From: a virus
IMG/VR virus record: IMGVR_UViG_3300035703_000058
Coordinates: 1-64,000 of that record
Strand: one strand, 5' to 3'
Length of the DNA stretch: 64,000 nucleotides
Positions 32,537 to 42,332 of the stretch are shown here, piece after piece. Below the pieces are notes generated by a model, which was not told where the DNA came from, did no database searches, and worked only from the letters and a program-made list of their open reading frames with translations. Each line of letters starts with the position of its first letter. The first letter of the stretch is position 1. Position numbers and translations under genes: made by a program.

Positions 32537-33372
32537 CTGAGGAAATTCTGCCCATTCCCTACCTGAGCCCCGGCGAGGCGGAGCTCTACCACGCCCTTGG
32601 CGACAAGGTGCGCGGCCGCGTCATCGCCGCGAGCCGCGCGGTCGCCGAAGGTATGTTGGGCTACAAGAAAGCCGGCCGCGTGTACGACGTCGCGGAGGTG
32701 ATCGGGCTCGTCCAGGCCATCGTCCAGCCGATCCGCAACCGCGAGCAACCGCCCCCGTGGCAGTCCGCGGTGCTGGAGCCGACCAGTCCACAGCAGTTCG
32801 TCCCCGCGGCGAACCTGCTGCCCGCCGTGGACACCATCGTCGAGTTGGACGTGGGCGGCGCCAAGACCCTCTCGGAGTTCGTCGCCGACGGCCGCCTGAC
32901 GGCGGCACAGGCCACGGCGGTGATGATGCTCGCGCTCGGCGAGCCGACCTATCAGGTGGCGGACAAGCTCCGCGTGCAGCGCACGGTGGTCTACGAATGG
33001 CGCCGCAAGCCCGCCTTCGTGGAAGCGTATGGGCTGGTCGTCCGCGAGCGCGCCGAAAGCCTCATGGCCAAGCTCGACGACGCGCAGACGCTGGCGCTGT
33101 CCACATTGGTCGAAGCCCTCCAGGCGACCACCATCGACCGCCTGGACAAAGAGGTGCCGGACTGGGATGCGCGCCTGAAGGCTGCAAAGGAACTGCTCGA
33201 CCGCGGTGGCCGTGCCCTCAAGACCAACCGCATGGTGGTCGCCGCGTCCGTGATGAAGGACGACATGAGCCTGGAGGACCGCATCGCCAAGCTCATGGAG
33301 GAGGAGCGCGAGCTTGAAGAGGACCTGCGCCGCCTGTCCACGCCGCTGACGGTCATCGAGGGCGGACGGTGA
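32533..33372 (+). CDS. probable terminase small subunit (HTH)
   Basis: QVADKLRVQRTVVYEWRRKPAF; RLKAAKELLDR; position before terL. Confidence 0.65.
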   Translation: MTEEILPIPYLSPGEAELYHALGDKVRGRVIAASRAVAEGMLGYKKAGRVYDVAEVIGLVQAIVQPIRNREQPPPWQSAVLEPTSPQQFVPAANLLPAVDTIVELDVGGAKTLSEFVADGRLTAAQATAVMMLALGEPTYQVADKLRVQRTVVYEWRRKPAFVEAYGLVVRERAESLMAKLDDAQTLALSTLVEALQATTIDRLDKEVPDWDARLKAAKELLDRGGRALKTNRMVVAASVMKDDMSLEDRIAKLMEEERELEEDLRRLSTPLTVIEGGR

Positions 33373-35006
33373 GAGCAGACGAAACCACCGCCGCGCTGCT
33401 GCGTCGCCACCGCGAGGTGGTGGAGCAGCGCGGTCGGCTGCAGTACCAGGCCGCCCGCCCCCACTGGGCTCGCAAGGTGCTGGAGGGCGGCCCCGGCAGC
33501 TACGCCGCCTTCGTCCGCTGGGCCTGGCACATCTTGGAGCCCGGCACGCTGCTCCGCTGGAACTGGCACATGGACGTGGTCTGCGACGCCATCCAGCGCC
33601 AGATCGAGGGCGACCCCACCTACCGGCGCCTGCTGCTCGTGCTCCCTCCCGGCACCGGCAAGTCCATCACTCTGGCGGGGTGTCGCGACCCCTACATGTG
33701 GCTCGCCCAGCCCTACCGCCGGACAATCTATTTGAGCGCCAATGATGGCAATGCCACGCGGGACAGCCGCCGGGCTCGCAACATCATCCAGTCACCTGAG
33801 TATCAGGAGCTGATGCGGGCGGCGGCTGAAAAGCACGGCATGGAGCCGTGGAAGTTGGCACACGACCAGAACGAAACGACAAACTTTGAGAACAGCCAGC
33901 GAGGGTTCAGGCAATGCTTGGGTATGGGATCCGACGTCACAGGCAAGCGCGGCGACGACCTTGTGATCGACGACCCGATGGACGCCAAGGAAGCCCTTCT
34001 CGGCACACCCGAAACGATCGAGCGAAGAATGAAGGAGGCGAGCGATATAATCGGCAGCGTGCTCACAAGTCGCGTTAACGACCAGGAAACCGCCTCTATC
34101 ACGATCATGATGCAGCGGCTTTACCCAAGCGACCCTGCCGGAATGGCGATTGCCGCTGGTGGCTGGAAGGTCATCGTGCTGCCGATGGAGTATGACCCTG
34201 ATCTGCCTGACGCCTGTGGTGGGCCGTGTGTGGAGGATCGGCGCCGCGTGAGGGGCGAGAGTCTCCACCCCGGCAAGTTTCCAGAGCATGTGATAGCCAG
34301 ACTGAAACAACCTCCGATCAACGGGCTCGGCCTCGTCCAGTTCGAGGGCCAGTACAACGCCAAGCCCAGCCAGAAGTCGTCCAAGCTCTACGACGCGGCG
34401 TGGTTCGCGAACACCTACCACCAAGCCCCGGCGGTGATGCGGCGGGAGATGGACCGGGTGGCGCTGGTCTGCGACGCGAGCTTCAAGAAGACCGGCACCT
34501 CCAACGTCGCGCTCGAAGTGTGGGGCAAGCGGCAGGGCCGCCTTTACCTGCTGCACGAGGTCTGCCGCAAGATGGGCTATCGGGAGACACGCGCCGAGAT
34601 CCGCCGTCTCGTTGGCGCCTGGAGCGTGGACGAGGTGGTGGTGGAGGACAAAGCCAACGGGTCGGCGCTTGTGGACGATCTCGGCAACAGCCACGAAGAC
34701 GAACACGAGCCACCGCTCGGCGTGCCGGTGGTGCCCTTCAACCCCGGCACCACCTCGAAGGTCGAACGTGAGGAGCTGTACAGCGTGCCCGCCTTCGCCG
34801 CCGGCAACGTGCTGTTGCCGGAGCCCCAGCACGCGCCCTGGGTCGGCGACTACGTGGCCGAGCACCTTGGCGGCACCATGAACGACCGCCGCGACACGAC
34901 CTCGATGGCGATCGCGTGGCTGCGTCGCGGCGAACGCGCCCGCGAATCCTCGGTGTTGGACCTGTTCGCCCACAGCCACAACGACGGCCTCATCGTGGGC
35001 TCCTGA
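33369..35006 (+). CDS. terL: terminase large subunit
   Basis: WNWH, PPGTGKS, TGKRGDDLVIDDP, MQRL, VEDKANG. Confidence 0.93.
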   Translation: MRADETTAALLRRHREVVEQRGRLQYQAARPHWARKVLEGGPGSYAAFVRWAWHILEPGTLLRWNWHMDVVCDAIQRQIEGDPTYRRLLLVLPPGTGKSITLAGCRDPYMWLAQPYRRTIYLSANDGNATRDSRRARNIIQSPEYQELMRAAAEKHGMEPWKLAHDQNETTNFENSQRGFRQCLGMGSDVTGKRGDDLVIDDPMDAKEALLGTPETIERRMKEASDIIGSVLTSRVNDQETASITIMMQRLYPSDPAGMAIAAGGWKVIVLPMEYDPDLPDACGGPCVEDRRRVRGESLHPGKFPEHVIARLKQPPINGLGLVQFEGQYNAKPSQKSSKLYDAAWFANTYHQAPAVMRREMDRVALVCDASFKKTGTSNVALEVWGKRQGRLYLLHEVCRKMGYRETRAEIRRLVGAWSVDEVVVEDKANGSALVDDLGNSHEDEHEPPLGVPVVPFNPGTTSKVEREELYSVPAFAAGNVLLPEPQHAPWVGDYVAEHLGGTMNDRRDTTSMAIAWLRRGERARESSVLDLFAHSHNDGLIVGS

Positions 35007-35009
35007 CCC

Positions 35010-35019
35010 CGCGATAGCC
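35010..35019 (+). promoter_or_regulatory. late-promoter motif before the portal gene
   Basis: CGCGATAGCC; T of TAG is 13 nt before the ATG. Confidence 0.55.
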
Positions 35020-35027
35020 AGCAGGAC

Positions 35028-37505
35028 ATGGCCAGCTTCCGTCAGCACCTCGCCGCCGGTCTTCGGGCGGCCCTACAAGGCCCGCCCCCGGCCGCCACCC
35101 CGCCGCCCGCAGCGCGCGCCGACACGCTCGGCGCGATCAGCCCGACGTCGGCGGCGGCGCTGATCAACCCGATCAGCGGCATCGGCTCCGCGGACGACTC
35201 CGGCGCCGCCAGCCGCCCGAATCTCTCCCGCGAACGCCTGAGCATGGACGAGCTGGTGGCGCTGCTCCGGGGCAGCCTCTACCGGCGTATATGCGACGTG
35301 ATCCCGTCTGATGCCATGCGGCGCGGCCTCATCGTCACCGATGACACCCGCCGGTCCAATCCGCTGCAGGTTGAGCTGGAGCAGTTCGATGTGGCGGCGA
35401 CGCTCCGACGGGCCGCCACCTTGGGCCGCGCGCTCGGCACCGCCTGGATCTGGCCCGTAGTCGAGGATGGCGGCGCCCCGCTGTCGGAGCCGCTGGACAT
35501 GCAGCGCGTCACCCGCCTCTACGCGCTGCACGTCCTGGATCCGCGCGACCTGACCGTGTGGACCTGGAGCCGCAACCTGCGCGAGCCCGGCGCGGGCCAG
35601 CCGTTGCTCTACACGTTGCAGCCTTGCCGCCCTGAGCTGTACGTGCCCCCCAACACGCTCATCCACCGCAGCCGCCTCATAGCCTTCTGGGGGGATGAAC
35701 TACCCCCATCAGAGCAACTCTACGGGAACGAGTCGCCGCTGGGCGACGCCATTGGTCAGACGATGTGGGATGGGCTACGCAACCTCACGCAGACCAGCGC
35801 GGCGGGCGCCCGGTTGGCTGAGGAGCTGTCCATCGCGGTGTTCTATCTGGCGAAGATGCCGGAGAAGGACGCCGCGGGCGGGCGCGACCTGCTGCGCACG
35901 GCCCTGAACAACATCATGCGCTACAAGTCCATCGCCCACGGTCTTGTGCTCGGCACGGGCGACAAGGCCGAGCGGCTGGGCGCCAACGCTTCGGGCTTTG
36001 ACACGCTCACCGAGGCGGGCTGGGAGGTCCTGCAGTCCCTCTCCGGGGTGCCGGCGGCGCGCCTGCGCGGCGTCGCCCCGAGCGGGCTGTCCACCGACGG
36101 CGCGAGCTGGCAGCAGAGCTACTACAGCGACGTGGACGCATGGGCTTCGGAGCGTTTGCAGCCCGCCGCCCGGCAGATCGTCCGCCTGCTGTACAGGCAC
36201 CGCGGACAGGAGCCCGCCTCCTGGCACGTCGGCTTTGGCCCGTTCTACCACCTGTCGATGCAGGAGCAGGCGCAGCTACGCCTGCTCACCGCCCAACACG
36301 ACCAGCTCGCCGAACAGGCCGGCTGGGTGACCGGCGAGCAGATCCGCCGCTCCCGCTACGGCGACGGCGGCTGGTCCTTCGAGATCCAGCCGGCCACCGA
36401 CGGGGACGAGGCACGGCTCACCGGCGCCGTTGACCCGGAAGAGGCCGAAAAGACGCTTGCCGATCTGACGGGGGCGCCGCCGGACCCGCTGACCGCCGAG
36501 CAGGTCAAGCTGGTACAGGAGGTGCTGGGCAACGTCAGCGCCGGCAAGGTCACCACCGAGGTGGGTCGCCTGCTCCTGGAGGGCGTGGTTGGCGCCACGC
36601 GCGCCGCCGCCCTCATCGGCGCACAGGGCGCCGCCACCACAGTCGACGCCCCAGACCTCACCGCCCAACGCACCCTGGCCGCCTCGATGACCGCCCACGG
36701 GGTCGAACGCTGCGAGCACGGCGCCGTGAACCGCTGCCGGATCTGCGGCATCGAGCGCGATCGGGCGCTCGTACTGGGCGCCGATGGCCAACCCACCCGC
36801 GACGCCGAGGGCCGCCCGGTGTGGGCGGTGCGCTGGCGGGCGCTGGGCGACCCCGATCCAACCCCGGACGCGACCACCACCGAGCCCCGACAGGACGCCG
36901 ACTTCGGCGGCAAGGCCCTGCTGTCGCTCACGCTGGGCGAGACGGGGCGCGCCGCTTGGGCAGAGCTGGCGCGTCGGGCAACCGACATCACCGGCCCCCT
37001 GGAGGGCTACGAGGTCGGCGAGAACGGCATCGCCGAGCCCCCACACGTCACGGTGCTCTACCTTGGCGCCGTCGCCGACGAACACCTCGCGGAGATCGAA
37101 CGCAGAGCGACCGCGGTCGTCGCCGACTTCGGCCCCATCGCGCTCCGGGCGAGCAGGATCGGCACGTTGCCCCCCGGGCCAGCCAGCGAGGGACGGGTGC
37201 CGGTGGTCGCCGAGATCCGAGCGTGGGAGCTGCCCGAGCTGAACGACCGCCTGCTGCGCGCGCTCGCGCCGTTCGTGACCGCGGATCAGTTCGCGCGCTT
37301 CCGGCCCCACGTCACGCTCGGCTTTGCCACCAACCCTACGCCCGAGCAGGTGGCCGCGCTGACGGAGATCCTGCCCGACACAGGGCCGACCGACATGATG
37401 TCGCTGGGCAGCGTCGCCGCGCTGGACCTCCACCACGGCAATCGGGTGGTGGCGCGGTTGCCCCTGCGCGGCACCCGGGCAGACGCCGATGCTGCTGAGC
37501 CCTGA
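35028..37505 (+). CDS. portal protein (DUF1073-like) fused to a C-terminal 2H phosphoesterase (Acb1-like)
   Basis: IHRSRL, GVP..RL.G..P.GL...G and YY portal motifs; two HVT motifs in the last ~190 aa. Confidence 0.85.
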   Translation: MASFRQHLAAGLRAALQGPPPAATPPPAARADTLGAISPTSAAALINPISGIGSADDSGAASRPNLSRERLSMDELVALLRGSLYRRICDVIPSDAMRRGLIVTDDTRRSNPLQVELEQFDVAATLRRAATLGRALGTAWIWPVVEDGGAPLSEPLDMQRVTRLYALHVLDPRDLTVWTWSRNLREPGAGQPLLYTLQPCRPELYVPPNTLIHRSRLIAFWGDELPPSEQLYGNESPLGDAIGQTMWDGLRNLTQTSAAGARLAEELSIAVFYLAKMPEKDAAGGRDLLRTALNNIMRYKSIAHGLVLGTGDKAERLGANASGFDTLTEAGWEVLQSLSGVPAARLRGVAPSGLSTDGASWQQSYYSDVDAWASERLQPAARQIVRLLYRHRGQEPASWHVGFGPFYHLSMQEQAQLRLLTAQHDQLAEQAGWVTGEQIRRSRYGDGGWSFEIQPATDGDEARLTGAVDPEEAEKTLADLTGAPPDPLTAEQVKLVQEVLGNVSAGKVTTEVGRLLLEGVVGATRAAALIGAQGAATTVDAPDLTAQRTLAASMTAHGVERCEHGAVNRCRICGIERDRALVLGADGQPTRDAEGRPVWAVRWRALGDPDPTPDATTTEPRQDADFGGKALLSLTLGETGRAAWAELARRATDITGPLEGYEVGENGIAEPPHVTVLYLGAVADEHLAEIERRATAVVADFGPIALRASRIGTLPPGPASEGRVPVVAEIRAWELPELNDRLLRALAPFVTADQFARFRPHVTLGFATNPTPEQVAALTEILPDTGPTDMMSLGSVAALDLHHGNRVVARLPLRGTRADADAAEP

Positions 37506-38451
37506 CCGCCGCGCCGACGCGGTACAGCAGCGCCTGCACCTGGAGGCGGTTGACCGGTTGACGGCCAACTACTACGCCGACCTGGAGCGCCGCGAGCGCC
37601 GCCTGCACGAAGAGACGGTGCGGGCGCTGCGGGGCAGGCTGCGGGCGGACAGCACCGAAGACCCGATCGCAGCCGCGGACCGCGCCGCCCTGCTTGGCCT
37701 GCTCGGACGCATCGCCCGCGCCCGGAAGGGCGAGCACGCACCCGACCAGCGCGACCTGGACCGGCTGTTTGGCCGCGCCGATCAGGCCACCACCGCCCAC
37801 ACCCGCCGCACCGTCGCCGCCACCGTCCGCGGCCGTGGCGTCGCCGAGCTGTTGGCGGACGCGCCCGCCATCGACCCGAAAGCCATGCGGGCCAACTTCA
37901 TCGCGTCCAACGTGGACCTCATCCGGTCGATCGACACCCGCTACCTCGCCGACGTGGCGACCCTGGTGGACACCGCGGCCAACGAGGGGCGCGCCTGGTC
38001 CTGGTTGGCCCGGTCGCTGGAGGATCGATACGCGGTCAGCCGCAGCCGGGCGCAGCTCATCGCCCGCGACCAGCTCGGCAAGCTCACCGGCCAGCTCACG
38101 CAGGTCCGCCACCTGGAGCTGGGCCTCGACGCCTACCAGTGGATGACGAGCGGAGATGAGCGGGTGCGGCGCAGCCACGAACGCCTGGAGGGCCGCATCT
38201 TCCGGTGGGATGCCCCGCCCCCAGTCGGCCACCCCGGCGAAGACTTCCAATGCCGCTGCACGTCGCGCGCGGTGGTCTCCGCAGCCCACGCCGAACATCT
38301 CCGCGGGCTGGCCGAGCAGCGCGCCCGCGCACAGGCCCAGCGCATCGCGCAGTCCCCGATCGTGCTCGGCACCATCGTGGCCCGGCAGGGGCGGCGCCTC
38401 GACCCCGCACGGTTGGCCGAGTTCCGCGGCGAGTTCAGGCGGGCGGCTTGA
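37489..38451 (+). CDS. SPP1 gp7 / MuF-like head morphogenesis protein
   Basis: RAQLIARDQ, W.TSGDERVR.SH, PGEDFQCRC. Confidence 0.92.
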   Translation: MLLSPDRRADAVQQRLHLEAVDRLTANYYADLERRERRLHEETVRALRGRLRADSTEDPIAAADRAALLGLLGRIARARKGEHAPDQRDLDRLFGRADQATTAHTRRTVAATVRGRGVAELLADAPAIDPKAMRANFIASNVDLIRSIDTRYLADVATLVDTAANEGRAWSWLARSLEDRYAVSRSRAQLIARDQLGKLTGQLTQVRHLELGLDAYQWMTSGDERVRRSHERLEGRIFRWDAPPPVGHPGEDFQCRCTSRAVVSAAHAEHLRGLAEQRARAQAQRIAQSPIVLGTIVARQGRRLDPARLAEFRGEFRRAA

Positions 38452-38641
38452 CCCGCCGGCCCTGCAGGACCACCACGCCCAGCTTGATCGCGTAGCGCGC
38501 GACGGCGGTGTCGCTGTCGAGTGTGGCGAGCAGAGCCGGATCCTGCTCGGACAGCAGCCGCCGTAGCTGCTGCATCGTCTGGTTGTCGATGTAGATGCGC
38601 GCCGCCTGCTTCGAGCTGGCGGCTTCGTTGCTTCCGACCAT
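38435..38641 (-). CDS. small antisense protein, ribbon-helix-helix-like
   Basis: ARIYIDNQTMQQLRRL...AVARYAI; GGAGG RBS; own promoter motif CGGGATAGCC. Confidence 0.5.
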   Translation of the reverse strand: MVGSNEAASSKQAARIYIDNQTMQQLRRLLSEQDPALLATLDSDTAVARYAIKLGVVVLQGRRVKPPA

Positions 38642-38725
38642 GTGGCCTCCGTGGGTCAACACTGGCCGGGCTATCCCGGTTCGTCACCGCCGCGACCCGC
38701 CCCAAAGCCGATCGGCAAAAGCCCG

Positions 38726-38735
38726 CGCGGTAGCC
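38726..38735 (+). promoter_or_regulatory. late-promoter motif before the protease gene
   Basis: CGCGGTAGCC; T of TAG is 13 nt before the ATG. Confidence 0.5.
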
Positions 38736-38743
38736 CCTCCGCG

Positions 38744-40018
38744 ATGGCCACCACCGCCCGCCGCTTTGACGACAAGCTCGGAGCCCCCCTGCTCCGGGTG
38801 TTCGTGCGCCCGGAAGACGGCGCCCGGCTCTGCGAAGGCATCGCAACCCAGGAAGGCGTGCTCGTCTACCGCAACGCAGACGGCACCGAGCGCCTGGAGC
38901 TGGTGACCCGACAGGCGGTGCTCGACACGGCAGCGACCATCGGCCGCGCGACGATGACGCTCCACCACCCCGAAGACGGCTTCGTCGGCCCGGACAACTA
39001 CCAGCGCCACGCCATCGGCGACGTCGACGGCGATGTGCGCGTGGAGGAGTTCGGCGCGCAGGGTGGCTTCGCGCGGGTCCGCGTGTTGACCGCGGTCCGC
39101 CGCGCCGACGCCCTCGATGCCCTCGCCGCTGGCGTCTGCCAACTCAGCAGCGGCTACGAGGTGGACCTGGACGAGACGCCCGGCGTCCACCCGGTCTTCG
39201 GTCGCTACGACGCCTGTCAGGTGGGCCGCCGCATCAACCACCTTGCGCTCGTGCCGGAGGGTCGCTCCGGCCCCGAAGTGGCCCTGCGCACCGACTCCGC
39301 CGACGCCGTGTGCGCCCGGCGCATCGACCACCACGAAAGCGGGGCGACCCGCATGGACTCGACCATGAAGCACCTGCTTGTGGCGCTGGGGCTGCTCGGC
39401 ATCACCCTGCGCGCAGACGCCAAGGACGACGATCAGGGCGCCGCCCTGGTCGAAGGCATCAAGAAGCTGAAGGCCGACATGGCCGAGATGGGCGAAAAGC
39501 TCGCCGCCGCCGAGAACGGCGGGGACGCGCTCAAGGCGTTCCTCGACGCCTACCAGCTCAAGGACCTCGCCGCGCTCAAGGCGAAGTTCGCCGAGATGGG
39601 CGCCCAGCTCACCGCCGCCCAACAGGAGGCCGCCGCCGCCAAGGCTGCGCTCCAGGCGAAGGAGGACGAAGCCGCCGCCGCCGCCCAGCAGGCCGAGATT
39701 GGGCGCATGGACGCGCTGGCCAAGCAGCTCGGCCTCAAGACCGACGGCCTCGACCTCAAGGCCAAGCGGCTGGCCATCGCCAAGACCCGCGTCGACAGCA
39801 TCGACGCCAAGGCCAGCGACACCTACATCGCCGCCGTGCTCGACATCATCGAGGGCGACCTCAAGGCCCGGGGCCAGCGCGCCGACGCCGCGGGGGCCAC
39901 GGGCGCCCGCCTCGACGATTGGGCCGACAAGCGCGGCGACCGGCGTGAGGACGCCAAGGACGAGTTCTACAACCCCCACGTGGCCCACTCCGATGCGGCC
40001 TTTCGAGGTGACAAGTGA
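38744..40018 (+). CDS. DUF2213 prohead protease/scaffold
   Basis: GVLVY, T..HP, LSSGY, NHLALV..GRSG; C-terminal coiled coil. Confidence 0.88.
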   Translation: MATTARRFDDKLGAPLLRVFVRPEDGARLCEGIATQEGVLVYRNADGTERLELVTRQAVLDTAATIGRATMTLHHPEDGFVGPDNYQRHAIGDVDGDVRVEEFGAQGGFARVRVLTAVRRADALDALAAGVCQLSSGYEVDLDETPGVHPVFGRYDACQVGRRINHLALVPEGRSGPEVALRTDSADAVCARRIDHHESGATRMDSTMKHLLVALGLLGITLRADAKDDDQGAALVEGIKKLKADMAEMGEKLAAAENGGDALKAFLDAYQLKDLAALKAKFAEMGAQLTAAQQEAAAAKAALQAKEDEAAAAAQQAEIGRMDALAKQLGLKTDGLDLKAKRLAIAKTRVDSIDAKASDTYIAAVLDIIEGDLKARGQRADAAGATGARLDDWADKRGDRREDAKDEFYNPHVAHSDAAFRGDK

Positions 40019-41205
40019 GCGCCAACGGCTTCTTCGAGCGCGCCAGCGATGTGCGCACCAACCGTCCGATCGGCTTCATCGGGCAGGTGCTCGGGTACTT
40101 CCGCTCCCGCAGCGGCAACAACCAGCGCCCCCAGGCCGCGCAGATCACGACCATCGCCATCCCGGCGAGCCCGGACAGCAGCACCGCCTACTCGGTGGTG
40201 ATCGACGGCGTGACCTGCACCTACACGACCGACGCCTCCGCTACCCAGGCCGAGCTTGGGGCGGGCCTGGAGGCGGCCATCGAGGTTCAGGCGGGCGCGC
40301 GCGGACGGATGTCGCCCAGCTACTCGGGCGGCACCCTGACCCTGACCGGCTCCTGGCCGGGCATCTCCTACACCGTCACCACGTCGGGCGGCACCGGCGG
40401 CGGCGCCATCGGCTCCGCGACCACGGCGACCGCGGCAGCGTCGGCGACGGCGGTGCAGTTCGGGCGCGCCCTTTGCACCGACGGGCAGGTGACCGACGAA
40501 GGCACCCCGAAGGTGTTCATGCCGACCACGGCGCTCTTCTCGGCGCAGGTGAAGACCTTCACCTACGCGAGCGTGGCCAGCGGGGACAGCATCCAGACCC
40601 GCGTGGTCATGAACGGCGATGAGATCCTGGTCTCGACGCCCTACAACACCTCGCACGCGCAGTCGCTCATCGACCACGCGGCGGCGCTGGAGACGGCGCT
40701 CAACGCGACCTTCGGCGCCGGCTATGGCGCGGTGGCGGCCCGCAGCTCCGACACCATCACCATCACCGCCGACGTGGCGGGCGCCGAGTTCAGCGCCGTC
40801 AGCGACGTCGTCGGCTCCGGCGGCGGCACGGTCAGCGCGGCCAACACCACCGGCCCCAGCATCTCGACCTCAGTGGCGCGGGCGCTGATCGGCGTCTCGA
40901 AGCGCCGGGCGGACGTCGAGAACGTCACCGTCGATGGCGACGATCCCGCCTACGCGGCCAACCGCGGCGTCGAGTACGTCGTGCACGGCGAGATGTTGGT
41001 CGCCCGCGACACCACGGAGACCTGGGATCGCAACTCGCAGACCTGGGTTTCGGTGTCCACGTCCGCCACGCTCAGCGGCCGCCTCTACGACACCGGCTCG
41101 TCCACCCGGGTCTGGATCCCGCAGGAACTCATCCGGCTCGTCGCTCAGGAACCCTCCACCCACACCGACGGCATCGGTCAGATCGCCGTCAACATCGGAG
41201 TCTGA
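40015..41205 (+). CDS. capsid decoration/cement protein
   Basis: Thr/Ser/Gly-rich; VQFGRAL; lies between protease and MCP. Confidence 0.6.
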   Translation: MSANGFFERASDVRTNRPIGFIGQVLGYFRSRSGNNQRPQAAQITTIAIPASPDSSTAYSVVIDGVTCTYTTDASATQAELGAGLEAAIEVQAGARGRMSPSYSGGTLTLTGSWPGISYTVTTSGGTGGGAIGSATTATAAASATAVQFGRALCTDGQVTDEGTPKVFMPTTALFSAQVKTFTYASVASGDSIQTRVVMNGDEILVSTPYNTSHAQSLIDHAAALETALNATFGAGYGAVAARSSDTITITADVAGAEFSAVSDVVGSGGGTVSAANTTGPSISTSVARALIGVSKRRADVENVTVDGDDPAYAANRGVEYVVHGEMLVARDTTETWDRNSQTWVSVSTSATLSGRLYDTGSSTRVWIPQELIRLVAQEPSTHTDGIGQIAVNIGV

Positions 41206-41207
41206 CC

Positions 41208-42332
41208 ATGTCACGGTTTGTCGAGGTTCTGGAAGGTGGTTGCGAGGGCGAGCTGTCGTCCTCCGACTACTACGCCGGTGCGGTGGAGGAGTTCCGCGCC
41301 ACCCTCAAGACCAAGCTGGACGCGCGCGGGCGCCGTGTGGACAACGCCTACACGGCGTCGATGACGCGGCTGGACAGCTATCTCGCCAGCGCCAACGACC
41401 GCCGCGGGGACGCCTTCGTGCCCGGCGCGGGCAACTACAACCCCCGCGACCTCACCCAGCGCATCAAGCGGGCGATGGAGGAGCGCCTGCAGCCGCTCAC
41501 CGCGGACAAGTGCTTCCCGATCAACACGGAGCTGGACCCGGGCGCGCTCACCTACGAGCAGACCCGGCTGATGACCACGGGCCGGGCGATCGAGTACCGC
41601 GGCGGGCTCGGCGATGACGCCCCGACCGTCGAGGTTGGCCAGTCCTCGGTGCAGCAGCCCATCTTGGGCGGCATCATCAAAGTGGTCAACGACTTCCGCG
41701 AGCTGGCAGCCGACCGCTTCGCGGGCGTCGATCGGGCGGCGAAGAAGATCGCGGGCGCGCGCCGCTCGATGCAGGAGCTGCGCAGCCGCTGGATCTGGCG
41801 CGGCAGCCAGGCCAACGGCATGTACGGCATCATCGGCCACCCCTACGTGGACACCGCCACCTCGCAGGTGCCGTACACCAGCGCCAGCGCGGTGGCCGAC
41901 ATCATCGCCGACTTCGTCTACTGGGCGCAGTGGGCGGACAACCAGTCCGGCAGCGCCTACAAGCCCGACTCGGTGGTCATCGGCCAGAAGCTGTACAACT
42001 ACCTCGCCGGGACGGTGATGGCGCTGAACAACAGCTCCAACGTCACCATCCTGGAGATGTTGAAGCGGCTCTGCCCGGACATCGTCAACTGGATGTCGGC
42101 GCCCGAGCTGAACGCCACGGTCGCCTCGAACGTGCATGGACTGTTCTTCTACGCCAAGGGCACCGGCGAGCTGGACCGCTCGGTGGAGCTGATGGACGCC
42201 ATGCCCGCCACGCTGCTCGCGCCCGAGAAGCGCGCGCTTGGCGAGCAGACCTTCATGGTGATGTTCTTCGGCGGCGCCAACCAGCGCAGCGCCGGGGACA
42301 ACCTGCTTGTTCACGTCGAAGGCCCCGCGTAG
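41208..42332 (+). CDS. major capsid protein (DUF2184-like)
   Basis: Size and position; G....GMYGIIGHP; PDSVVI. Confidence 0.8.
   Translation: MSRFVEVLEGGCEGELSSSDYYAGAVEEFRATLKTKLDARGRRVDNAYTASMTRLDSYLASANDRRGDAFVPGAGNYNPRDLTQRIKRAMEERLQPLTADKCFPINTELDPGALTYEQTRLMTTGRAIEYRGGLGDDAPTVEVGQSSVQQPILGGIIKVVNDFRELAADRFAGVDRAAKKIAGARRSMQELRSRWIWRGSQANGMYGIIGHPYVDTATSQVPYTSASAVADIIADFVYWAQWADNQSGSAYKPDSVVIGQKLYNYLAGTVMALNNSSNVTILEMLKRLCPDIVNWMSAPELNATVASNVHGLFFYAKGTGELDRSVELMDAMPATLLAPEKRALGEQTFMVMFFGGANQRSAGDNLLVHVEGPA

Follow-up and report, generated by a model that had tools for sequence, protein, structure and literature searches.

The window analyzed here comprises the first 64 kb (64,000 nucleotides (nt), ~70% G+C) of IMG/VR virus record IMGVR_UViG_3300035703_000058, a 75,417-bp record with direct terminal repeats, and the gene in question is a portal gene of its head module that carries a 2H phosphoesterase domain at its C-terminal end. 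The gene forms one unbroken frame encoding 825 amino acids (aa), in which a PF06381 portal core is followed, in N to C order, by a linker, a Cys/His module, the sequence EPRQDA, the 2H domain and the sequence TRADA (Table 1). The motifs listed in an initial annotation of this region are found where it placed them: CEH at residue 562 (nt 36711), CRIC at residue 570 (nt 36735), EPRQDA at residue 619 (nt 36882) and TRADA at residue 816 (nt 37473). The location it gave for the region likewise holds, apart from a start coordinate (36640) that misses the reading frame by one base, the codon beginning at 36639.

Table 1. Positions of the portal fusion gene, its parts and the surrounding head genes (nt, window numbering)
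Feature	Position	Strand	Remarks
Portal-Zn module-2H phosphoesterase fusion (P0001), 825 aa	35028..37505	+	single open reading frame; Pfam PF06381, PF13563 and PF02834; phrog_146 portal, E 3e-57
R-A-D, aa 30-32	35115..35123	+	predicted N-terminal processing site of the portal
Portal core, aa 79-426	35262..36305	+	PF06381, E 1e-46
Cys-His-Cys-Cys module, aa 542-612	36651..36863	+	predicted zinc-binding; C562, H564, C570, C573
R-Q-D, aa 621-623	36888..36896	+	followed by A-D-F; predicted protease site freeing the 2H domain
2H phosphoesterase fold, aa 629-812	36912..37463	+	HVT at 37044-37052 and 37308-37316
R-A-D, aa 817-819	37476..37484	+	predicted C-terminal site, leaving hexapeptide ADAAEP
Large terminase (TerL)	33369-35006	+	
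MuF-like head morphogenesis protein	37489..38451	+	PF04233, E 7.6e-20; phrog_324
DUF2213-type head maturation protease fused to coiled-coil scaffold	38642..40018	+	PF09979, E 3.5e-19; phrog_530 'head maturation protease', E 2e-47
Conserved 396-aa head-module protein	40015-41205	+	phrog_33525; between protease-scaffold and capsid genes
HK97-type major capsid protein	41208..42332	+	phrog_264, match from aa 73
R-G-D of the major capsid protein, aa 66-68	41403-41411	+	predicted delta-domain site

The sequence H-V-T occurs only twice in the 825-aa protein, at residues 673 and 761, which are 88 residues apart and are the two sites named in the initial annotation. Both Pfam models for 2H enzymes match above their curated cut-offs (PF13563 over residues 670-780 with E 4.6e-13 and 49.9 bits against 27 bits, rising to 53.4 bits in the genome-wide search; PF02834 with E 6e-10 and 39.6 bits against 23.3 bits). 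The catalytic His and Thr of both motifs are invariant in the 17 fusions of alignment A1 and reach at least 90% conservation among 145 relatives, and the domain is therefore a genuine 2H domain and not a chance resemblance. The predicted structure of the domain is well defined, with a pLDDT (predicted local distance difference test) of 93.6 and a final block averaging 68, and only its first four residues (TEPR), at the junction with the rest of the protein, fall below 50 and are predicted to be disordered. As judged from sequence and model together, the C-terminal domain is an intact 2H phosphoesterase, and the superfamily assignment of the initial annotation stands.

Its further label, 'Acb1-like', does not. 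The Acb1 model PF23474 gave no match at E≤0.1 in the fusion protein or at E≤10 in the whole phage genome, while in the same analysis it functioned on a distant standalone relative (L020), which it scored at 29.1 bits, at the Acb1 cut-off. The best sequence match in the PDB is the D. radiodurans 2',3'-cyclic phosphodiesterase (CPDase) 5h7e (E 4e-4), whose motif 1, HVTLSYLP, aligns with PHVT[VL]LYLG of the window domain; after the second H-x-T, in this one pairwise alignment, G-F here stands against A-R in the D. radiodurans enzyme. TIGR02258 (RNA 2',3'-cyclic phosphodiesterase) is the sole NCBIfam match in the 2H region with E <0.01, at 30.1-31.2 bits against an equivalog cut-off of 65.7. Enzymes of the 2H superfamily head both fold searches, and the top PDB matches in Foldseek are 1vdx and 5h7e. 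Re-ranked on the DALI scale (VIA Z), the LigT/ThpR structures come first (5h7e, Z 17.3; 1iuh and 1vdx, both 17.2; 169-173 residues aligned, root-mean-square deviation 3.1-3.2, identity 18-21%), followed by Usb1 (16.1), E. coli LigT (15.6), AKAP18 (13.5), plant CPDase (13.2), the phage BCSR5 phosphodiesterase and coronavirus ns2 (both 12.4) and rotavirus VP3 (12.3). Acb1 (7t26, Z 11.5 over 137 aligned residues) ranks 41st, ~6 Z units under LigT/ThpR, and the penguinpox cyclic GMP-AMP (cGAMP) phosphodiesterase reaches 10.8. Among the viral models searched, those annotated as Acb1 occupy ranks 29-36 and are outranked by a free-standing phage protein labeled '2'-5' RNA ligase superfamily' and by large structural or morphogenesis proteins of actinophages; the structural protein of Gordonia phage GMA2 and the capsid morphogenesis protein of Microbacterium phage OneinaGillian are among the actinophage proteins that this search returned. 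Our literature search found no paper on the Burkholderia phage BCSR5 phosphodiesterase structures (9q2y/9q2g).

By these sequence and model comparisons the domain is a LigT-branch 2H enzyme, kin to Acb1 at the level of the superfamily only. Like LigT/ThpR proteins (5h7e, T. thermophilus 1iuh, P. horikoshii 1vdx and E. coli ThpR 4qak/5ldi) it has both H-x-T motifs and a similar context around motif 1, but those proteins are standalone cellular enzymes whereas the window domain forms part of a virion protein, scores below the TIGR02258 cut-off and shares only the 18-21% identity given above. A true orthologue of Acb1, the T4 57B/FBB1 family directed against the cyclic-oligonucleotide-based antiphage signaling system (CBASS), fused here to a portal is in our judgment very unlikely: the common superfamily fold, the paired H-x-T motifs, the 137-residue alignment to 7t26, the L020 score at the PF23474 cut-off and the Acb1-annotated proteins in the viral fold list all speak for it, yet PF23474 is silent on a domain to which the generic 2H models give 40-53 bits, 40 entries outrank Acb1 structurally with LigT/ThpR on top, and the best PDB sequence match is a CPDase. 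Acb1 (T4 gp57B; Erwinia phage FBB1, 7t26/7t27; Hobbs et al. 2022, PMC9117128) is a phage 2H enzyme too and a plausible functional analogue, but it is free and compact, with ~150 aa and a lid at its C-terminus (PMC9117128), whereas the window domain is fused and spans ~185-195 aa, ~185 of them in the fold; as a structural neighbor Acb1 also ranks under LigT, Usb1, AKAP18, plant CPDase and the viral 2'-5' phosphodiesterases.

The fusion is widespread. A word-indexed search returned 16 other clusters (90% identity) with the portal-2H architecture, down to 36% identity; this recurrence and that in many independent contigs rule out an assembly artefact as the source of the fusion, while the single open frame and the same architecture in many independent contigs rule out a hidden frameshift or a separate 2H gene. 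An exhaustive phmmer search with the 2H domain alone extended the set to 231 representative clusters (50%-identity representatives). Among the best 150 of these, tallied for fusion partners with local hidden Markov models, 73 are fused to PF06381 portals, 40 are proteins of no more than 260 aa, one carries a DUF2213 protease, and the remaining 36 are fused to other partners. Ten of the 36 were sampled for domains and comprised XkdF-type and S78 prohead proteases, one MuF protein, one HK97-type portal and giant multidomain proteins, five of the sampled representatives being fusions of a 2H domain to S78 or XkdF proteases. What portal, MuF and prohead protease have in common is a place inside the procapsid, and the repeated fusion of 2H domains to them is the strongest argument for the enzyme as capsid cargo. 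Scanning viral and genome contigs with a pattern from a single sequence yielded nothing, whereas alignment-based scans succeeded. A FastTree phylogeny of the 2H domains was too poorly supported (0.23 for the largest pure portal clade) to count the origins of the fusion.

Several of the relatives are of interest in their own right. The 2H domain lies N-terminal to the prohead protease in P0034, P0042, P0080 and L035:9215-11239 (XkdF/S78_2) and in P0051 and P0133 (S78); in L035 the 2H domain comes after a CxxC...CxxC stretch, and the adjoining gene encodes a portal-MuF fusion. P0153 (1220 aa) combines an HK97-type portal (PF04860) with a C-terminal 2H domain, so that a second portal family bears the same cargo domain; its N-terminal match to a Hint domain is weak (25.5 bits against a cut-off of 28.4). 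The giant proteins P0099 (2214 aa) and P0105 (1309 aa) open with a 2H domain, next to which come a superoxide-dismutase C-terminal-like domain and, further on, either a topoisomerase of type IB or an NAD-dependent DNA ligase.

In the window the fusion gene belongs to a head module that forms a single + strand block (nt 33369-42332), within which the start of the MuF gene overlaps the end of the portal gene by 17 nt. A tail sheath gene lies downstream of the block, and the phage, which is uncultured, is therefore a myovirus. The protease-scaffold frame opens (window 38642-38760) with ~35 poorly conserved residues after its listed GTG start, and similarity to its relatives sets in near RRFD (residues 40-43), which may mark the real start of the protein or a site of N-terminal processing. 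The 396-aa protein may be a decoration or auxiliary scaffold protein.

The initial annotation had also proposed that RQD-A and RAD-A, on either side of the 2H domain, are maturation-protease sites, and this idea finds real comparative support: both are conserved module borders, and their consensus recurs in the other head proteins. The window portal contains three R.D motifs only, at residues 30, 621 and 817, all of them at module borders, and across the 17 fusion portals R.D is conserved at exactly three columns corresponding to these sites (15/17, 15/17 and 12/17). The D-A-D sequence ahead of the 2H domain is invariant in 17/17 fusions of alignment A1, matching the catalytic residues in conservation. 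A fourth R.D site stands ahead of an optional inserted module of ~120 aa, whereas the zinc module is not separated from the portal core by any R-x-D. R.D stands no more than 20 aa ahead of strand 1 in 57/73 portal-fused representatives (78%, against a background of 10%), in 4/14 standalone 2H proteins (29%) and in 4/23 other fusions (17%); after the last 2H strand the motif is found in 28/46 portal fusions and 3/28 other fusions.

The other head proteins were aligned across five or six lineages whose DUF2213 modules are homologous, namely the window, L026, L040 (in a Schumannella metagenome-assembled genome, MAG), L032, L041/L042 (in a Myxococcota MAG) and L002; L017 contributed further MuF and portal sequences. 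In the major capsid protein R-x-D falls in one column, directly ahead of the conserved core, in 5/5 divergent lineages, and the window protein reads RGD/AFVPG at this point. The boundary between delta domain and core is the classical position for delta-domain removal. The protease-scaffold protein has 14 R.D motifs, and six R.D columns, including ones at the end of the protease domain and in the C-terminal tail, are common to at least 4/5 divergent lineages. MuF has N-terminal R-x-D motifs at residues 8-10 and 52-54 that are common to relatives, and the 396-aa protein has one at residues 298-300 in 5/5 lineages. The enrichment is specific to the motif and to the head: R.D[AS] occurs 16 times in five head proteins against 2.8 expected (z 7.9; 0/2000 shuffles as high), the mirror motif occurs twice against 2.9 expected, and non-head open reading frames hold 27 R.D motifs against 31 expected, which is no excess. 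Likewise, divergent lineages have 11 R.D columns in common, whereas each of 13 control motifs gives 0-5. From the distribution of these sites we infer that R-x-D is the recognition motif of the DUF2213 protease. Cleavage would probably follow the Asp, by analogy with the head proteases of T4 and phiKZ, which have an acidic P1. The proteome paper on phage 7-7-1 was set aside, as it concerns a different head module.

Between the portal core and the 2H domain lies the second appendage of this portal. Residues C562, H564, C570 and C573, together with N, G, R, G, P and W positions, do not vary among 15 sequences drawn from two portal families, and the AlphaFold model of the module (pLDDT 89.2) shows a helix, a metal knuckle and a β-hairpin. 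Comparison with the PDB returned nothing significant (best E 0.2 in Foldseek; best Z 2.3 in VIA, a wide search independent of Foldseek), a weak or missing match being in itself no proof of a new fold. Residues 542-612 thus probably form a zinc-binding domain, as predicted from the conserved ligands and the model, with no fold relative detected among solved structures. The same module is found C-terminal on portals that have no 2H domain (P0018-P0021 and P0168), including portals of the Mu type (PF06074), and is therefore an independent, mobile portal appendage.

Further modules are attached in a similar manner. In P0002, P0003, P0005, P0008, P0009 and P0015 the optional ~120-aa module ('FKVPxGAKGNARKVLAWK ... 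PWRDAGWVSWLGWGGD'; alignment A1 columns ~905-1015) forms an insertion that follows the zinc module and comes ahead of the 2H domain, and in L013 and L016 it is also found upstream of the 2H domain. It has no Pfam match at E≤0.01 in P0003 or P0015, is preceded by its own R-x-D-A-D-D-F, and looks like a second cargo cassette. P0013 has an additional module of ~200 aa C-terminal of GERVDAAD, the site that ends its 2H domain, an order that fits a string of cassettes separated by predicted protease sites. The MuF protein of L032:5602-7848 (also L005, L006, L007 and L029-L031) has an insertion of ~430 aa between 'lwqC' and 'rC', which holds TPNHP, ends in IITHNC and looks, by these sequence features, like an intein.

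In a more general reading, DUF2213 proteases would cut after the Asp of R-x-D and, in this phage lineage, the portal C-terminus would be a modular 'cargo rack' of interchangeable, site-bracketed cassettes, giving every virion a fixed load of no more than 12 copies of free enzymes for injection, with a new zinc-binding fold kept on the crown; we hold this to be a real possibility that falls a little short of even. The cassettes seen are the 2H phosphodiesterase, the ~120-aa 'WLGWGGD' module and the ~200-aa module of P0013.

For the window phage itself, the best explanation as a whole, to which we give about an even chance, is that the inward-facing end of the portal carries a zinc module and a 2H enzyme that is cleavable and injected. 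The C-terminus faces the capsid interior in solved portal structures. Twelve copies of the enzyme would enter each procapsid with the portal ring, and during head maturation the DUF2213-type protease would cut after the Asp of R-x-D, the same cut that would trim the delta domain of the major capsid protein, the protease-scaffold itself and MuF. The predicted products of the portal are a propeptide (residues 1-32), a mature portal of 63.8 kDa (residues 33-623, starting at T33) on which the zinc module would stay, there being no R-x-D ahead of it, a free 2H enzyme of 196 aa and 20.8 kDa (A624-D819) inside the head, and a C-terminal hexapeptide (820-825); the capsid protein would mature to 33.4 kDa from A69. 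The size predicted for the enzyme agrees with the fragment of ~20 kDa following RQD that the initial annotation had expected. The freed enzyme would then exit with the DNA and act as soon as infection begins. The parts of this explanation that we infer are packaging, cleavage, ejection and substrate.

Several points weigh against it. No purpose is obvious for the conserved 6-10-residue tail past the last site, the dose would be low at twelve molecules per virion, and the 21-kDa protein, being folded, could pass the phage tail only by unfolding. The cleavage site has no cultured relative as an anchor, because searches of the phage collection gave no close match: tblastn with the C-terminal 288 aa of the portal found nothing in 50,697 phage records, and the capsid protein gave one weak match only (Acinetobacter phage vB_AbaSI_5, 28.6%). 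Papers found mentioning DUF2213 state no cleavage specificity, and a sequence search of solved structures with the DUF2213 protease returned none. As regards the substrate, the Acb1 family model fails to match, and the substrates of the nearest characterized enzymes are RNA ends with a 2',3'-cyclic phosphate (ThpR/LigT) or, for the RNase Usb1, RNA, in neither case cyclic oligonucleotides. Finally, ~22% of portal-2H fusions have no R.D at the junction, most of these keeping x-D-A-D, and L013 and L016 show no clean site though they have phrog_530 proteases.

The fusions that lack R.D at the junction, and L013 and L016 with no clean site, are what would be expected if the extension were not cut at all, so that the 2H and zinc modules were permanent appendages of the portal crown, either idle or with a role in assembly or packaging, and R-x-D was kept for another purpose such as scaffold docking. 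That many fusions stop right past the last strand, with no second site, and that no R-x-D lies between the zinc module and the portal core would also agree with an uncut extension. Its difficulty lies in where the motif is placed: R-x-D stands exactly at the delta/core boundary of the capsid protein in five lineages, a classical cleavage position, it brackets every optional module, it is rare both before standalone 2H domains (4/14) and after the 2H domain in fusions with other partners (3/28), and the junction it occupies is predicted to be disordered. We regard a permanently uncut extension as distinctly improbable, and the cleavable, injected enzyme as the better account.

The chemistry of 2H enzymes ranges over 2',3'-cyclic phosphate hydrolysis, cleavage of 2'-5' and 3'-5' oligonucleotides and RNase action. 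Given delivery, the likeliest job of the enzyme, though one that we would place somewhat under an even chance, is the hydrolysis of host defense nucleotide signals (cyclic or 2'-5'/3'-5'-linked oligonucleotides), an Acb1-like action without membership of the Acb1 family. Degradation of such signals fits an enzyme that would be delivered at time zero, and Acb1 and the viral 2'-5' and cGAMP phosphodiesterases, which appear in the fold lists, are precedents by analogy. The closest neighbors in sequence and structure, ThpR/LigT (5h7e, E 4e-4, Z 17.3) and Usb1 (Z 16.1), point instead to an enzyme directed at RNA, either a ThpR/LigT-like 2',3'-cyclic phosphodiesterase processing the RNA ends left by host anticodon or abortive-infection RNases or an RNase of the Usb1 kind injected against host RNA; the CPDase-like context of motif 1 and the TIGR02258 match agree with this, and an RNase role, proposed by analogy with PBECR-portal/MuF fusions, is the favored first option in the part of the 2017 survey dealing with the 2H domain (PMC5512222). 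However, TIGR02258 reaches only 30 bits of the required 65.7, G-F replaces A-R after the second H-x-T in the one pairwise alignment with the D. radiodurans CPDase, and a search of the 75,417-bp genome found no RtcB, PF09414 RNA ligase or KptA, so that an RNA-repair pathway encoded by the phage is unlikely and end-healing would have no phage-encoded sealing to follow it. An RNA-directed role is an unlikely though serious contender, clearly behind signal degradation. The rest of our expectation falls to some other job or to no role after injection.

Head proteins processed alongside the capsid have long been known from other phages. The internal proteins and Alt of T4 and the inner-body and ejection proteins of phiKZ and SPN3US are cut by the prohead protease at a short consensus with an acidic end. 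A paper on SPN3US is PMC10052503. As in those systems, the window phage would have procapsid cargo bounded by the same consensus as the capsid propeptide and the scaffold, in this case as predicted from sequence, and would eject this cargo along with its DNA; there, however, the cargo is a protein of its own or is targeted by a peptide that is later removed, whereas here the portal would be the carrier and the dose would not exceed 12 copies. The consensus differs as well, being L/I-x-E or S/A/G-x-E in T4 and phiKZ and R-x-D, as proposed here, for a different and uncharacterized protease family, DUF2213.

The fusion of 2H domains to MuF or portal proteins was reported by Iyer, Burroughs, Anand, de Souza and Aravind (2017, J Bacteriol 199:e00245-17; PMC5512222), whose section 'The 2H phosphoesterase domain' (with Fig. 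5B) proposes a Usb1-like RNase or the breakdown of nucleotides from nucleotide-activated defense systems and states that these 2H versions are never associated with RNA ligases. Section 3.4.5 of a later paper (Iyer et al. 2022, Viruses 14:1977; PMC9503650) takes such fusions to suggest packaging in the head and injection against (oligo)nucleotide signaling. As described in those sections, the portal-2H fusion and the idea of injection against signaling were thus already published, and the window gene is a further example: like their 'polyvalent' fusions it has the 2H domain C-terminal to a portal, in one polypeptide encoded among head genes, and no RNA ligase is associated with it. The delivery and counter-defense idea of the initial annotation, a prediction, is plausible and accords with this earlier proposal. 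In the published passages bearing on such fusions, processing by autoproteolytic zincin-like domains is invoked, whereas we propose the prohead protease for the window phage. R-x-D bracketing tied to DUF2213, the zinc module and the 2H-prohead protease fusions are described in none of these passages of the 2017 and 2022 texts, figures and supplements aside.

If the 'cargo rack' reading is true, it would provide the first specificity rule for an uncharacterized protease family and would make virion cargo readable from sequence. The practical gain is a set of checkable predictions, namely the R-x-D consensus, the mature termini (portal T33, cargo A624-D819 and capsid protein A69) and the 20.8-kDa fragment. 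Enzymes packaged in the head act before phage gene expression and so represent the first move against host immunity, and, if the enzyme degrades defense signals, Acb1-type counter-defense would extend to a second, virion-delivered branch of the 2H superfamily.

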